A stretch of DNA of 64,000 nt. Origin: Sumerlaeia bacterium (GTDB lineage: Bacteria; Sumerlaeota; Sumerlaeia; SLMS01; JAHLLQ01). The stretch lies in assembly GCA_040219255.1 (NCBI GenBank), contig JAVJSW010000060.1, forward strand, positions 160,001 to 224,000, read 5' to 3'. Positions within the stretch are counted from its first letter, which is position 1, and every line of letters begins with the position of its first letter. Below, piece by piece: positions 22,453 through 27,901 of the stretch. The notes under the pieces were generated by a model. It made no database searches. It was given only the letters and a program-made list of their open reading frames with translations, and was not told where the DNA came from. The position numbers and the translations under genes are program-made.

Positions 22453-23760
22453 GTGACCGCCGAGCCGTACAGTGTCCTGATTATCGAGGACAACAAGACC
22501 GACGCGATGATCCTCAACAAGATCATCACCAAGCACGCGCTCGCCAAAGTGCAGGTGGTTTCCGACGGGCTCGAGGGACTGACCGAGTGCTTTCGCCTCC
22601 GGCCCGACACCTTGATTCTGGACCTGGAATTGCCGGGCATCCGGGGCGAGGAAATCTGCCGTTTGATCCGCTCGTCATCGACCTTGCGCGATCTTCCCAT
22701 TCTGGTCGTGTCCGAACTGCCGGACGCCAAGCGCCGCGAGATGGAAATGCTGCGCCTCGGCGCCGATCACTACATGGAGAAACCCTTCGTCGAAGTCGAC
22801 TTCGTCGCGGCGCTGCGCAACCTTCTGCATCAATGCGAAGACAGCACCGTGATCGAGTCGAGCGACGCGCTGCCGCTCGATGACTTGCAGGATCCTCTGG
22901 CGGACACGGAAGAAAGCCTTGGGCGGCATGAACCGGCCGACTCGATCCAGACTTTTCAGGGCTATCACCTGCTCGATGTCCTCGGCGCCGGCGGCATGGG
23001 CACGGTCTATCGCGCCCAGCAGATCAAACTGATGCGGACCGTGGCGCTCAAGGTTTTGCTGGAGCACTTCACCCAGGACCACCAGGTCCGGCGCCGATTC
23101 CAGCGCGAAGCCCTGATCATGGCCCAGGTCAATCACAACAACATCGTGCAGGTCTACGACGTCGGCAACACGGAGTACACCTCGTACTTCGCCATGGAGT
23201 ATGTGGATGGGCCATCGCTGCACGCGATGATTATCGAGGAGTCGCTGAACTGGCCGATGGTCGCGCGGGTCGTCGGCGAAGTGTGCGACGCGGTGGCATA
23301 CCTTCATTCCCAGGGCATCATCCACCGCGATATCAAACCGTCGAACATCCTGATCAACGGAAACGGCGTGGCGAAGATGACCGACTTCGGCATCAGCCGC
23401 GCCAAGCTGCCCGTCGACATCAGCCAAGTGGAAGACACCACCAACGAATACGCGATCCTGGGGACGATGAATTACATGGCGCCGGAACTGCTCTATGGCG
23501 GGGCGGCGACGGAGTTGACGGATCAGTTCGCCATGGGGCGGACGTTCTGGCGGCTCCTGGTCGGGATGGATGCGTTCGATCTGGACAAGCCATTGCACGC
23601 GTACCGGCCCGATCTGCCGATCGAATTGAGCAAGGCGATCGGTCGCTGCATGGATCCGGCGCCGGACCGCCGCTATCCCTCCATCGCGGCGGCGAAAGAG
23701 GCGATCCTGGCGGAGATCGAGGTGGCCCAGCACTTGGCGCCGGTGTACCGCGAGAGCTGA
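22453..23760 (+). CDS. Response-regulator receiver fused to a Hanks-type Ser/Thr protein kinase
   Basis: N-terminal REC (IIEDN, ILDLELPG, EKPF) and kinase motifs GAGGMG, VALK, HRDIKPSN, DFG, YMAPE. No TM helix. Confidence 0.9.
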   Translation: MTAEPYSVLIIEDNKTDAMILNKIITKHALAKVQVVSDGLEGLTECFRLRPDTLILDLELPGIRGEEICRLIRSSSTLRDLPILVVSELPDAKRREMEMLRLGADHYMEKPFVEVDFVAALRNLLHQCEDSTVIESSDALPLDDLQDPLADTEESLGRHEPADSIQTFQGYHLLDVLGAGGMGTVYRAQQIKLMRTVALKVLLEHFTQDHQVRRRFQREALIMAQVNHNNIVQVYDVGNTEYTSYFAMEYVDGPSLHAMIIEESLNWPMVARVVGEVCDAVAYLHSQGIIHRDIKPSNILINGNGVAKMTDFGISRAKLPVDISQVEDTTNEYAILGTMNYMAPELLYGGAATELTDQFAMGRTFWRLLVGMDAFDLDKPLHAYRPDLPIELSKAIGRCMDPAPDRRYPSIAAAKEAILAEIEVAQHLAPVYRES

Positions 23761-23777
23761 GAATCCAAGCGAACACG

Positions 23778-23812
23778 AAAAAAGCCACCCCGGCGAAGAG
23801 AACCGGAGTGGC
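23778..23812 (-). terminator. Probable intrinsic terminator for the minus-strand transcript
   Basis: Stem GCCAC(C)CCGG…CCGG(A)GTGGC preceded on + by AAAAAA, which gives a U-tract on the minus strand. It lies between convergent genes. Confidence 0.6.
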
Positions 23813-23863
23813 GTGAATCGGAGACATCTTTGTTCCGGCGGGGAGCCGGAGAAGATGGAGGGT

Positions 23864-24055
23864 TTAGGAGTGCGGACCGCCCCGCAGAAGTTGCGTCAGG
23901 ACCAGGGCGGCGGTGCAGAGGCCCGCCACCAGCAAGGACAGGGCGAAAGCGGCTGTCATGGACTTGCTGACCACCGACTTGCGGTGATCTTGATCCGCGG
24001 CGACTTCGCGGACGCGTTCAGGGTCTACGGCCCCGGGGCCGTGAGGCATGGCCAT
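23864..24055 (-). CDS. Small single-TM hypothetical protein
   Basis: GAAGGAG RBS upstream, one C-terminal hydrophobic helix, located between the RNase gene and the terminator. Confidence 0.5.
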   Translation of the reverse strand: MAMPHGPGAVDPERVREVAADQDHRKSVVSKSMTAAFALSLLVAGLCTAALVLTQLLRGGPHS

Positions 24056-24124
24056 GGTACATGGTCTCCTTCATGTGCGGTCGTCCCTCTTCTTTTGGAA
24101 GGCGGGACGATGATTGGACGGCGG

Positions 24125-24493
24125 TTAGCCTTTCGCCTTCTTGGCGGCCTTTTTGGCGGAGGACTTCTTCGCCGCGCCGGCAGGCTTCGCCGCCGCAGCT
24201 TTCTTAGGAGCCGCCGCTTTCGGGGTCGAGGCTTTCTTTGCCGCCGCCGCCTTCTTGGGAGCAGCCGCCTTCTTAGGTGCCGCGGCTTTCTTGGGAGCGA
24301 CCGCCTTCTTGGGAGCAGCCGCTTTCTTCGGGGCGGCGGCCTTCTTGGGCGCAGCCGCCTTCTTGGGAGCGGGCTTCGGCTCGGCGGGGGTTTCCGCCGC
24401 TACGGGCTCTTTGGGAGCGACCGCTTTTTTCGCCGCCTTCTTGGTGGCCGTCTTCTTCGCGGCGGGCTTCGTGGTGGACTTCTTCTTGGCCAT
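24125..24493 (-). CDS. Putative histone-H1-like Lys/Ala/Pro-rich protein, in-frame internal ORF of the RNase gene (122 aa)
   Basis: Minus strand reads GGAGG-CACCCACC-ATG GCC AAG AAG AAG, giving MAKKKSTTKPAAKK… with PKKAAA repeats. Confidence 0.5.
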   Translation of the reverse strand: MAKKKSTTKPAAKKTATKKAAKKAVAPKEPVAAETPAEPKPAPKKAAAPKKAAAPKKAAAPKKAVAPKKAAAPKKAAAPKKAAAAKKASTPKAAAPKKAAAAKPAGAAKKSSAKKAAKKAKG

Positions 24494-26917
24494 GGTGGGT
24501 GCCTCCGATGTGGGATCATCGCTCGCCGGGTCCGAATCCGTGCGATTCGATGACGAGGTATGGGGTTGAACCGCCGAAGCGGGTTTTTGATTCCGGGACT
24601 TTCGCGTTTCCCCTCCCTTAGCCTGCGCCGGGGGGGAGATCTTCTGCTCCCCCAGGCCCCAGGCCCCCACGAGTTCCACGACGTCCGAGCGGATCAGGGT
24701 CCGCAGGTCCGGCGCTTCGTAGGACTTGTCCAGCTCCCCGGGGGGAGTCGGATTCGGTGTTCGCGGCGGGCGGTCGCCAAAGGCGCCCTTGCGAATCGAT
24801 TCCACAGCCCGGCCACGGCCGTAAATCACACGGACGCCGCTGGAAAGCGTTTCGCCGCTTTCCGGCACGGGCACGGTCTGAGCGCTCGCTTTGAAAGACG
24901 CTGGGTCTTTCCCCGCGGCGGGTGGGCTCATCACTTCGGCGCGAGGCACGGCGGCCGCCGCGATCTCAGGCGCCAAGGGCTCGACGTCGCGCTCGATGGC
25001 CGCTGGGTCGACGGGTTCGTGCGCCAGCGAACGAAGCCAAGGCGAATCGGCCTCCAACTCTGCGCCTTCGGACTCTTCGTCCTCTGTTCCGCCTTCGTCC
25101 TCGGGACGGCGACCGCGGCGCCGACGGCCACCACGCCGCCCACGGCGTGTGCGGCGCTTCTTGCCCTCTTCATCTTCTTCGTCGTCCGATTCCGGATCCA
25201 GAGTCCGCTCCAGCGACGAGTCTTCCAGTTCTTCTTCGAGGACCGCTTCCACGGCCACAAGGGTCCGCACGTCGGACGGCAGGTCCTCGTAGGCGATCGG
25301 CGGAGCCACGGCCTCGTCTTCCTCGATGCGCTCGCGCGGTGTGCGGGGCGCCTTGCGGCGCGGCTTTTCCACCGGCGTGATGGTGAAGTCCTCGCGATGG
25401 AAATCCGAGTCGGCGCGGAACAGCAGTTCCAGATCGTGAAGAGATTCGAGCGCGGCGATGCTTTCCGCCAGGTCTTCCTGCAGCGTTTCCAGCAAAGTCG
25501 GTTCGCACGTCACGACGAAGCCGCTGAAGGCGCTCTTCGAGACGCCGACCTGGCGTTCGATTTCCGAACGCATGCGGCGCCACACTTCCCGGGGACGCAG
25601 CACAAGACCGGTGCCGTTGGTGTACGGATCGGGTTCGAAGACCTGCTTGAGGAGCGATTTGCGGATGCGCTTGCGGGTCATGATGAGGAGGCCGAAATCG
25701 CCGACGCGGCCCACGCTGCTCTTGGCGCGGTCCGGCTTCATGGCCTGGCGCAGTTCGTCATACACGCGGGTTTGGTTGTCGCGCGATTGCATGTCGATGA
25801 AATCGACGACGATGATGCCGCCGATGTCGCGCAGGCGAATCTGCTCCGCGATGGTCTGACAGGCTTCCAGGTTCGTCTTGAAAGAGGTGCTTTCCTGATT
25901 CTTGTTGCCGGTGAATTTGCCGGTGTTGACGTCGATAGCGGTCAGGGCCTCGGTTTCGTCGATGACGATGGAGCCACCGGACTTGAGCGGCACGGTGCGT
26001 TGGAAAGCCGACTTGAGCTGATCTTCCAGGCGATACTTGTCGAAGATGGGCTCGTGGCCGTGATAGAGCTTCACGCGCTCCACCAGGTCCGGCAGATCCT
26101 GGTCCAGGGCCGCTTCGAGCTCCTGCTTCAGTTCCACGTCATCGACGATGATTTCGTCGACCGATTGGCTGAAGGCGTCGCGCACGAGGCGGGGGATGAT
26201 GTCGTGATCGCTGTAGACGAGGCCGGGTTTCTTGCGGGCGCGGAAGCGTTCGCAGAGAGTTTGCCATTGCTCGCGCAGATTCTCCACGTCCGAACGGACC
26301 GAGTCTTCATCGGCGTTGGCGCCCGCGGTGCGAACGATGAAGGAGTCCATGTCGCTGCGCAGTTCATCGAGGAGCTTGCGGAGTTTGTCGCGATTGCGGC
26401 CCTGGGCGATGCGCTTGGACACGCCGCCGGACTGGCCGGGGAAGGGCAGCAGGACCACGAAGCGGCCAGCGATCGCCAGGTTCGTCGAGGCGCGGGGGGC
26501 TTTGGTTCCGATGCCGTCCTTGATGACCTGCACGATGATGCTATCGCCAGCCCGGATGGGGGCTTCGGCATCGCGGGCGCGCAGATCGACTTTCGGCCGG
26601 CGCCCTTTGCGTTCGAGGCGGCCGGGAATGCTTTCGCCCGCCGCTTCGATCAGGGCTTCATCCAGGTCTTCCGAGTCCATCACCAGAGCTTCGGTGCGGA
26701 TGTCGAGGAAGTGGAGGAAGAGATTGCGTTCGATTCCGACGTCGATAAAGGCGGCCTGGAGACCCGGCTTCACGTCCTGAACGACGCCGCGATAGATGTT
26801 ACCGACGAGGGATTTTTGGGAGAAATCTTCCTGGTGGAGCTCGACGAGGCGGTTGTTTTCGAGAAACGCGACGCGGATGTCGAAATCGCCCCGGTTGATG
26901 ACAACTTGCTTACGCAT
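24125..26917 (-). CDS. rne: Rne/Rng family ribonuclease (RNase E/G) with long disordered C-terminal region
   Basis: S1 domain (GNIYRGVV…GLQAAFIDVG), ETEALTAIDVNTG, IRLRDIGGIIVVDFIDM, Arg-rich KRRTRRGRRGGRRRR and a Lys/Ala tail. Confidence 0.9.
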   Translation of the reverse strand: MRKQVVINRGDFDIRVAFLENNRLVELHQEDFSQKSLVGNIYRGVVQDVKPGLQAAFIDVGIERNLFLHFLDIRTEALVMDSEDLDEALIEAAGESIPGRLERKGRRPKVDLRARDAEAPIRAGDSIIVQVIKDGIGTKAPRASTNLAIAGRFVVLLPFPGQSGGVSKRIAQGRNRDKLRKLLDELRSDMDSFIVRTAGANADEDSVRSDVENLREQWQTLCERFRARKKPGLVYSDHDIIPRLVRDAFSQSVDEIIVDDVELKQELEAALDQDLPDLVERVKLYHGHEPIFDKYRLEDQLKSAFQRTVPLKSGGSIVIDETEALTAIDVNTGKFTGNKNQESTSFKTNLEACQTIAEQIRLRDIGGIIVVDFIDMQSRDNQTRVYDELRQAMKPDRAKSSVGRVGDFGLLIMTRKRIRKSLLKQVFEPDPYTNGTGLVLRPREVWRRMRSEIERQVGVSKSAFSGFVVTCEPTLLETLQEDLAESIAALESLHDLELLFRADSDFHREDFTITPVEKPRRKAPRTPRERIEEDEAVAPPIAYEDLPSDVRTLVAVEAVLEEELEDSSLERTLDPESDDEEDEEGKKRRTRRGRRGGRRRRGRRPEDEGGTEDEESEGAELEADSPWLRSLAHEPVDPAAIERDVEPLAPEIAAAAVPRAEVMSPPAAGKDPASFKASAQTVPVPESGETLSSGVRVIYGRGRAVESIRKGAFGDRPPRTPNPTPPGELDKSYEAPDLRTLIRSDVVELVGAWGLGEQKISPPAQAKGGETRKSRNQKPASAVQPHTSSSNRTDSDPASDDPTSEAPTMAKKKSTTKPAAKKTATKKAAKKAVAPKEPVAAETPAEPKPAPKKAAAPKKAAAPKKAAAPKKAVAPKKAAAPKKAAAPKKAAAAKKASTPKAAAPKKAAAAKPAGAAKKSSAKKAAKKAKG
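24242..24367 (-). repeat. Seven tandem 18-bp units encoding PKKA(A/V)A
   Basis: Read directly from the sequence. Synonymous codons vary between units. Confidence 0.9.
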
Positions 26918-27442
26918 AGAGGGGGGTGTCACTTCTGGTGGTGGGCCGTGGCGCGCGGGCGGAGGTCCACTCCGCATGGCGCGAAAGGCGGGAGGTCGCC
27001 GCCGGCCGAGGGAGGAACCCCTGCGAGGCTTGGCGCGATTGCCCATCCAACGGCTTGGAATGTGGCGGAACGGATTCAGCGGCGCCCGCAAGACCAGCGC
27101 GAATCTTCGCTGCTCGGTCTGGCTGCCGGATGAGGCCCGCTCCTGGAAAACGAAAACTCTCGGCGGAAACTCTCCGCCGGTCTTCCTGTGTCGCATCGTC
27201 GCTTTCGAAGCGCGTGCCGCAAGTCAAATGGTCTTCCGCAAGAAAAACTTTCATACCAATTGGCTCGCCTAACGATTCCCAAACGTCAAGAGACAATCGG
27301 TCTGAAATGAATTTTTTCCACAACTTCTCTCGCGAACAAAATCAACTCTCCCTCCGCACCTTCCCGCCATTGACGCCCAAAGCCCCCCTCTGCACCCTGC
27401 TGCCACCCCATTCCTCCCCACTCCCCAAGGACACTTTCCGCG

Positions 27443-27901
27443 ATGATCCACGGCGTCAAAACCCGCAAACTCACCCCCCACTGCGACGAACGCGGCCGCT
27501 TGATGGAAATGCTGCGCCGGGACGATCCGGAAATGGACGTCACCTTCGGCCAGGTCTACGTCACCACCGCCTATCCCGGCGTCGTCAAAGCCTGGCATTA
27601 CCACAAAATGCAGACCGATCACTTCGTCTGCCTCAAGGGCATGGCCAAGGTGGTCCTCTACGACGACCGTGCCGACTCGCCCACCAAAGGCGAGGTCAAC
27701 GAGTTCTTCCTCGGCGAGCACAACCCTCTCATCGTCGAAATCCCCAAATTCGTCTACCACGGCTTCAAGTGCATCGGTGAAGGCGAAGCGATGATCGTCA
27801 ACATCACGACGAACACCTACAACTACAAGAACCCGGACGAGTACCGCATCGATCCCCACAGCGGCCAGATCCCCTACGACTGGTCGCGCAAAGACAGCTG
27901 A
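27443..27901 (+). CDS. dTDP-4-dehydrorhamnose 3,5-epimerase (RmlC-like cupin) family protein
   Basis: DERGRLME, PGVVKAWHYH, D.R.DSPT, IPKFVYHGF. Confidence 0.85.
   Translation: MIHGVKTRKLTPHCDERGRLMEMLRRDDPEMDVTFGQVYVTTAYPGVVKAWHYHKMQTDHFVCLKGMAKVVLYDDRADSPTKGEVNEFFLGEHNPLIVEIPKFVYHGFKCIGEGEAMIVNITTNTYNYKNPDEYRIDPHSGQIPYDWSRKDS

Follow-up and report, generated by a model that had tools for sequence, protein, structure and literature searches.

The 64,000-nucleotide stretch analysed here, referred to below as the window, lies on contig JAVJSW010000060.1 of a Sumerlaeia bacterium and carries on its minus strand a gene of the Rne/Rng family of endoribonucleases, called rne in what follows. The locus is most likely a single gene coding for an RNase E-like endoribonuclease, and the protein has an extended, disordered C-terminal region that closes with a polycationic tail of lysine, alanine and proline (Table 1). 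Its reading frame extends over 1032 codons from stop to stop on the minus strand. About 400 residues of the product are non-catalytic and are arranged as acidic, arginine-rich and acidic blocks, a Pro/Ala-rich stretch containing VELVGAWG, a polar-acidic spacer and the tail; no Pfam family matches the low-complexity region of residues ~560-808. The original prediction, made from the sequence without database searches, had described the last 122 codons as a histone-H1-like protein nested in frame within the RNase gene and provided with its own ribosome-binding site. Re-reading confirmed the features on which this description was built, namely a 122-codon tail opening at an ATG with GGAGG at a spacing of 8 nucleotides (nt), seven PKKAAA units and a switch in composition at the methionine.

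Membership of the Rne/Rng family is indicated by PF10150 (RNase_E_G; E=2.9e-97, 325.8 bits for a cut-off of 25.5) and by TIGR00757 (438.3 bits for a cut-off of 325.95). The equivalog models for RNase E score below their cut-offs (NF008074, 264.5 vs 908; NF052588, 243.6 vs 1400; NF052586, 234.7 vs 900), as does the one for RNase G (NF008689, 362.6 vs 594), and the protein, at 930 amino acids (aa), is not of the size of RNase G (~490 aa, without a scaffold region). Both metal-binding aspartate motifs, VIDxTEAL and V(I/V)DFIDM, are present as IVIDETEALTAIDVNTG and IIVVDFIDMQ; we take their aspartates to be the metal-binding residues of the DNase I-like subdomain, equivalent to D303 and D346 of E. 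coli. In place of the zinc-link motif CPxCxGxG the protein reads EPDPYTNGTG (~25520-25550, minus strand). CPxCxGxG is found in 20 of 22 relatives and CPYC.GKA in the remaining two, and both cysteines are replaced only in the RNase E/G of the window; the motif occurs in 34/42 K-tailed database matches and in 65/78 others, and is thus typical without being universal. The zinc link presumably has a role in the formation of dimers and tetramers of the enzyme, which the loss of its cysteines may change.

Table 1. Features of the rne locus, with positions numbered from the first nucleotide of the window
Feature	Position	Strand	Remarks
Rne/Rng-family ribonuclease open reading frame (ORF)	24125..26917	-	930 aa from MRKQ, stop included; ATG at 26917, TAA at 24127-24125
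Catalytic core, residues 14-442	25592..26878	-	Pfam and NCBIfam matches
Acidic block, then Arg-rich block (KKRRTRRGRRGGRRRRGRR), then second acidic block; residues 556-615	25073..25252	-	
Low-complexity non-catalytic C-terminal region ahead of the tail, residues ~560-808	24494..25240	-	read from the translation
VELVGAWG	24656..24679	-	single copy of the short motif hydrophobic-x-hydrophobic-hydrophobic-x-x-[WFYH]-G
Spacer, codons 766-808	24494..24622	-	weak coding periodicity; GC content at third codon positions (GC3) 0.53 in codons 766-795
GGAGG	24502..24506	-	8 nt ahead of the internal ATG; codons tcG GAG Gca (S-E-A)
In-frame internal ATG, Met809	24491..24493	-	candidate internal start
Lys/Ala/Pro tail, 122 codons	24128..24493	-	H1-like by composition only
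18-nt tandem array encoding PKKAAA units	24192..24370	-	70-81% matches between copies; Tandem Repeats Finder (TRF)
Terminator-like hairpin and T run, ~310 nt past the rne stop	23784..23812	-	consensus scan only; 4 sites vs 2.6 expected

The 122 residues of the tail comprise 39 Lys, 48 Ala, 16 Pro and no Arg, with a net charge of +36, a mass of 11.9 kDa and an isoelectric point (pI) of 10.9, and the tail is indeed polycationic, as first proposed; the repeat unit occurs eight times when written as PKKA[AV]A. The switch at Met809 is abrupt, the preceding residues (...NRTDSDPASDDPTSEAPT) being acidic and polar, and the junction between spacer and tail reads ...DDPTSEAPTMAK. The tail has no Pfam (E<=0.01) or NCBIfam match: neither a winged-helix globular domain of linker histones nor an HC1 or HC2 model was found in it. 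By composition, the only part of H1 that it resembles is the Lys/Ala/Pro-rich C-terminal domain. The resemblance to free-standing bacterial H1-like proteins stood up, since genes for such proteins, starting with MAKK and similar residues, were found in seven relatives (see below), and the Atlas clusters agree weakly: the nearest ones contain bacterial 'histone family'/HC2 proteins of 93-121 aa at scores of 0.91-0.92, a weak lead, and carry PF07382 in 27-70% of their members, a score of 0.91 meaning low recognition.

The tail is shared by the relatives of this bacterium. According to their sources, the closest database homologues, with 51-57% identity over the catalytic half, come from Candidatus Sumerlaeia or Sumerlaeota. 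An open RNase E/G frame of 875-1218 codons, free of internal stops, was found in 23 of 24 family- and order-level genomes, the exception (G012) having a 578-codon RNase E/G devoid of a tail, and a Lys-rich tail lies on a continuous frame in all 19 of the relatives' loci that were read (L002-L020). At least 15 lysines occupy the last 100 residues of 41 long homologues (826-1087 aa) among the best 120 database matches, and in most class-level relatives the enzyme is a short form of 516-646 codons that resembles RNase G. The tails are of the AKKA, PKKA or KPAA type in the family of the window and contain more Thr and Arg in sister families. The relatives also share the layout in which a WG motif is followed by a basic patch, an acidic or polar spacer and the K/A tail. 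This short motif (e.g., IQIVSSWG) is present in one to three copies in the C-terminal region in 10/10 genomes examined of the window's family and absent from 10/10 sister-family proteins, which share an L..LD.IE..L-type segment; both the motif and the segment are candidate docking sites for partners. Searches with other queries added little: the C-terminal 411 residues retrieved nothing from the database at E<=0.001, low-complexity words having flooded the 8000 candidates; a HMMER search with the tail alone gave 10 weak and uninformative matches of mixed lengths; and when contigs were scanned with the full-length protein, the only loci retrieved were distant and RNase G-like, at 31-40% identity. 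A tail carried on one frame in 19/19 loci and in 41 homologues contradicts the suggestion of a recent fusion by loss of a stop codon; the fusion must therefore be old, and the comparison of sequences shows that the enzyme has long carried the tail throughout this order of Candidatus Sumerlaeota.

Similar tails occur on other proteins of the clade. They were surveyed by combining degenerate DNA patterns with the reading of loci and Pfam naming, and the patterns are narrow enough to have missed a known free-standing gene in the relative G006, which makes a 'no match' (e.g., for G019) weak; a whole-genome protein search with the tail found three places in 41 genomes, a number limited by composition filters. 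Pyruvate phosphate dikinase (PPDK) bears a C-terminal Lys tail, with 13-40 Lys past the conserved end motif, in 11/11 relatives with a readable C-terminus, the end motif not being found in 12 further loci and one more locus being interrupted. The PPDK of the window's own genome (G000:C37:197898-200672, L131) is untailed (5 Lys in 56 residues). C-terminal tails were also seen in relatives on TopA (4 loci), UvrA and a GT2 glycosyltransferase, and N-terminal Lys/Ala stretches on an HhH-GPD glycosylase and on DUF4912 proteins. In the own genome TopA and UvrA have short K-rich ends, and a strict scan found only the RNase tail to be strongly K/A-rich, save for a protein of 298 codons (G000:C59:23782-24675, minus strand) that joins a K-rich N-terminal region to a DksA/TraR zinc finger at its C-terminus (PF01258, E=1.4e-10). 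As far as sequences tell, such tails are shown to be a wider habit of the clade, mostly on enzymes acting on nucleic acids.

Free-standing H1-like genes are also present in the clade, as eight small ORFs of 64-224 aa that start with MAKK, MAKT, MATK, MADD or MAED in seven genomes (G001, G002, G006, G007, G009, G013 and G015). Four family relatives (G001, G002, G006 and G007) possess a TPR/zinc-ribbon gene, and in each of them a free-standing H1-like gene lies 110-217 nt past it; in G002 and G007 a methyltransferase gene comes next. The free-standing genes of the family (L147, L153, L112, L150 and L151) are preceded, 7-9 nt before their ATG, by an extended Shine-Dalgarno (SD) sequence, GAGGTGA, which can pair over its full length with the 16S 3' end, and their 5' regions are conserved across genera (z 10-44 among G001, G002 and G007). 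None of the neighbours of the free-standing gene maps near the window in a synteny test.

Around rne itself, the relatives' alignments with the protein start at residues 1-4, and no SD sequence was found upstream of its ATG at 26917. About 350 nt (26918-27270, minus strand) separate this start from a divergent upstream gene and could hold a long leader, of which enterobacterial rne offers an example. A consensus scan found no sigma-70-like promoter in 23700-25000, and no Rfam match at E<=1 was obtained in 23500-27500. The terminator-like hairpin of Table 1 may end the rne transcript. The convergent neighbour (22453-23760, plus strand), judged from its translation alone, combines the receiver domain of a response regulator with a Ser/Thr protein kinase domain.

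Several known systems share parts of this architecture. The RNase E of Proteobacteria consists of a catalytic N-terminal half and a disordered C-terminal scaffold with Arg-rich RNA-binding segments, and forms bacterial ribonucleoprotein bodies (BR-bodies). The enzymes of E. coli and Caulobacter belong to the same catalytic family as the one described here, and their long C-terminal half is likewise of low complexity, with acidic blocks that alternate with basic ones, a segment rich in Arg and short motifs that recur. They differ from it in that the terminal basic module here is made of Lys/Ala/Pro repeats and is not Arg-rich, the zinc-link cysteines are absent here, the RNase E equivalog score here is 264 for a cut-off of 908, and no partner- or membrane-binding segment was identified here. 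Low-complexity Lys/Ala(/Pro) repeats are likewise appended to nucleic-acid enzymes in actinobacterial TopA, where Lys repeats are reported to stabilise the TopA-DNA complex and to raise affinity and processivity (PMC5714199), and in Ku of Mycobacterium smegmatis, whose PAKKA repeats reportedly modulate DNA binding (PMC3553676). The TopA of Sumerlaeota is tailed as well, but the enzyme considered here is a ribonuclease of another phylum, and its substrate would be RNA. Free-standing bacterial H1-like proteins (AlgP, Hc1/Hc2) are alike in composition and size; here, however, the module follows an enzyme in the same frame and has no Pfam match at E<=0.01. The fusion of an H1-like module to a regulator of RNA metabolism is exemplified by Streptomyces DdbA, in which H1-like and DksA-like domains are joined (PMC3643593). 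The DksA-type protein of the own genome is similar to DdbA, but it is encoded outside this locus, and both the partner domain and the orientation differ from those of rne. Finally, RhlE1 is reported to contain a short stretch rich in lysine, and RhlE2 to bind RNA and RNase E through an extension rich in Gly and Glu (PMC8266600).

In the reading that we favour, and which we regard as probable by a modest measure, the tail serves only as the polyanion-binding disordered end of the enzyme. It would bind polyanions without sequence preference, RNA being the most likely partner, with DNA or polyphosphate as possible ones; AlgP, a free H1-like protein, has been tied to polyphosphate granules (PMC9239181). 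Binding of RNA by the tail could raise the local affinity for substrate or its concentration, or the processivity of the enzyme, and the tail may promote multivalent, condensate-like assemblies rich in RNA; RNase E is reported to form condensates, and in the proteobacterial enzyme this is the work of Arg-rich segments together with charge blocks (PMC10412687). The tail would then play the part of the Arg-rich segments of proteobacterial RNase E or of the Lys repeats of actinobacterial TopA and Ku. The internal ATG and the GGAGG ahead of it would be a species-specific by-product of a Met substitution beside a Glu codon, and the full-length protein would be the only important product.

The alternatives to this reading concern the integrity of the frame, the origin of the tail and the products of the gene. 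A sequencing or assembly error might mask a stop or a frameshift between rne and a separate H1-like gene, leaving two ordinary genes. The stretch comes from a metagenome assembly, the tail is repetitive, and only one public DNA run, probably of the same sample as the assembly, holds the stretch, at a Logan depth of 2.4-4.1; no RNA run is listed as holding it. No single Logan contig spans the whole tail, and the pieces overlap by 29 and 12 nt within repeats, so that the repeat number is limited by short reads. Nevertheless, the three Logan contigs that cover 23920-24900 show no indel and a single substitution (24300 A>G, Val to Ala), which turns one PKKAVA unit into PKKAAA and reflects strain variation or an error at a depth of 2.4, and one of them bridges the junction (24433-24900) without any difference. 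A hidden stop is unlikely because the Logan contigs contain neither an indel nor a stop and the frames of 19/19 relatives are continuous. The original statement that no stop separates rne from the tail was upheld, the frame being open through the whole gene, and the assembly error that had been named as a possible refutation is not supported; two separate genes are highly improbable. A less remote but still improbable explanation is capture, in which a former free-standing H1-like gene, together with its ribosome-binding site, was joined in frame to a truncated rne and replaced an older tail. It would account for the absence of the free-standing gene from its usual locus and for a tail that opens with an SD sequence, an ATG and MAKKK. 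Moreover, the PKKAAA-type tail aligns to the PPDK tail of G019 (z 9.5) and to the free-standing gene of G006 (z 6.4) better than to any RNase tail (z <=3.9), although shuffle z-scores are inflated for any pair that shares a repeat unit. The spacer is also unusual: codons 766-795, with the GC3 given in Table 1 and no codon periodicity, fall in the lowest 1% of coding windows (genome-wide 30-codon windows average 0.83, and 0.8% of them lie at or below 0.57), but other blocks of the same C-terminal region are also low (GC3 0.60-0.63). The distance from the last WG motif to the tail is 52 aa, vs ~110 in G002 and G007. Against capture, the 150 nt before the internal ATG are unlike the 5' regions of the free-standing genes (z -1.2 to 1.25), which are alike among themselves, and these genes carry GAGGTGA as their SD sequence in this family, not GGAGGCA. 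Capture would furthermore need at least two events, because an H1-like gene was never seen beside rne in the relatives examined, and it is simpler to suppose that the tail came down with the gene and was reshaped by turnover of its repeats.

It is also conceivable that ribosomes start at the ATG at 24493 in addition to the start of rne, and that the gene thereby has a second product, a free 122-aa H1-like polycation (11.9 kDa, pI 10.9), which would replace a lost free-standing gene and whose start point changes could have created within a tail already inherited. On the features of the sequence, weighed against the low prior of any one internal ATG, we consider this dual output a serious possibility, though one that falls short of an even chance, and a number of observations accordingly weigh against the tail being solely the enzyme's end. 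GGAGG (24506-24502) is followed by 8 nt (CACCCACC) and the ATG (24493-24491, minus strand), and the anti-SD of this genome is canonical, the 16S 3' end on contig C56 reading ...GGATCACCTCCTTTCT and carrying CCUCC. A 4-mer SD core precedes 33.3% of 378 unambiguous ATG starts vs 7.0% of internal ATGs, and in this genome GGAGG at 4-10 nt is found at 16/378 starts (4.2%) vs 124/20,837 in-frame internal ATGs (0.60%). The minimum free energy (MFE) over -30..+30 of the site is -9.5 kcal/mol, close to the mean of true starts (-10.7, sd 5.3) and far from that of random internal ATGs (-18.1, sd 5.0); 47% of true starts but only 4% of random internal ATGs are equally open, and none of the other internal ATGs among the 124 with GGAGG folds as weakly. 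The tail opens with MAKKKSTTKPAAKK and the free-standing gene of G006 with the similar MAKKKAATKAAAKK, both being MAKKK-like. The TPR gene of the own genome abuts the methyltransferase gene (G000:C42:757-3656, L160) and leaves no room for the H1-like gene kept at this locus in the 4/4 family relatives with a TPR gene, and scans of the own genome (92% complete) found no small K/A-rich ORF. The PPDK tail of G019, ~125 aa of PKKAAA/PKAAA, is preceded by AAGGAGG, 8 nt and an ATG (MAEKTTTKKST), with a weakly folded start (-10.7 kcal/mol). The tails on PPDK and the glycosyltransferase argue, as far as sequence can, for a generic polyanion-binding or localisation role over RNA substrate binding. A precedent for the internal start exists in E. 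coli arcB, rpnE/ypaA and infB, where a 3'-proximal in-frame ATG with an SD sequence lies at a domain boundary and where the rpnE internal product is 98% identical to that of the independent ypaA gene (10.1101/520783); those starts were shown by ribosome profiling and reporters, whereas the one here is predicted from sequence. On the other side, the internal start is not conserved, which counts against it by the criterion set with the original prediction: an ATG with an SD sequence is found at the RNase tail start in 0/19 relatives' loci, although most of these may not need an internal start, and any Met in the last 140 residues in only 3/41 long homologues, none of them in a MAKK context. The GGAGG motif alone is not rare, because a spacing of 8 is among those at which a GAG codon in phase gives rise to it, and it precedes 124 internal ATGs. 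The openness of the site is due in part to A-rich Lys codons and is not independent of the composition of the tail. The own genome also keeps the DksA-type K-rich protein and the short K-rich tails of TopA and UvrA, and at 92% completeness a free-standing gene could be missing, repeat-rich genes assembling poorly. SD-like motifs before an in-frame GTG near the tail start in G005, G009 and G003 are formed by Glu or Gly codons.

In the rne of G005 (L010), ~105-108 codons from the C-terminus, GAGGAGGA formed by Glu/Asp codons lies 8-11 nt before GTG GTG, and an ATG follows three codons past these at the head of the Lys-rich tail, as a possible second internal-start candidate in rne.

A joint reading, which we put forward tentatively and consider rather unlikely, would see in the 3' end of rne the only H1-like gene of this genome after loss of the free-standing one, with the rne mRNA giving both the tailed RNase and the free polycation, and, in addition, in the shared Lys/Ala tails a common address. 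Tails on RNase E/G, PPDK, TopA, UvrA and further proteins of this order would gather them on the same polyanion (RNA, nucleoid or polyphosphate), and a degradosome-like assembly would form through like-charged tails instead of specific docking sites. What the distribution of the tails suggests is a general address at the nucleoid, the ribosome-rich cytoplasm or polyphosphate.

Disordered basic C-terminal regions of RNase E and Lys/Ala repeat tails on bacterial nucleic-acid enzymes are well known. In the full-text literature searched, subscription journals and supplements lying outside this coverage, no report was found of an H1-like tail of Lys and Ala on RNase E/G, or of such tails across the proteins of Sumerlaeota. 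To our knowledge, work on RNase E scaffolds has been confined almost entirely to Proteobacteria, Actinobacteria and Cyanobacteria. An uncultured phylum here shows a different solution, in which a conserved Lys/Ala/Pro tail replaces Arg-rich segments or is added to them. This raises the questions of whether such tails set RNA affinity or the formation of condensates, and whether they co-localise unrelated enzymes, for instance PPDK with the RNA decay machinery. Should the internal start go unused, the locus would serve as a caution that a perfect SD sequence and ATG at a domain boundary can come from a Glu codon and a single Met. Should it be used, rne would offer a natural case of an internal start taking over the job of a free-standing gene, and would inform our understanding of how nested genes originate.

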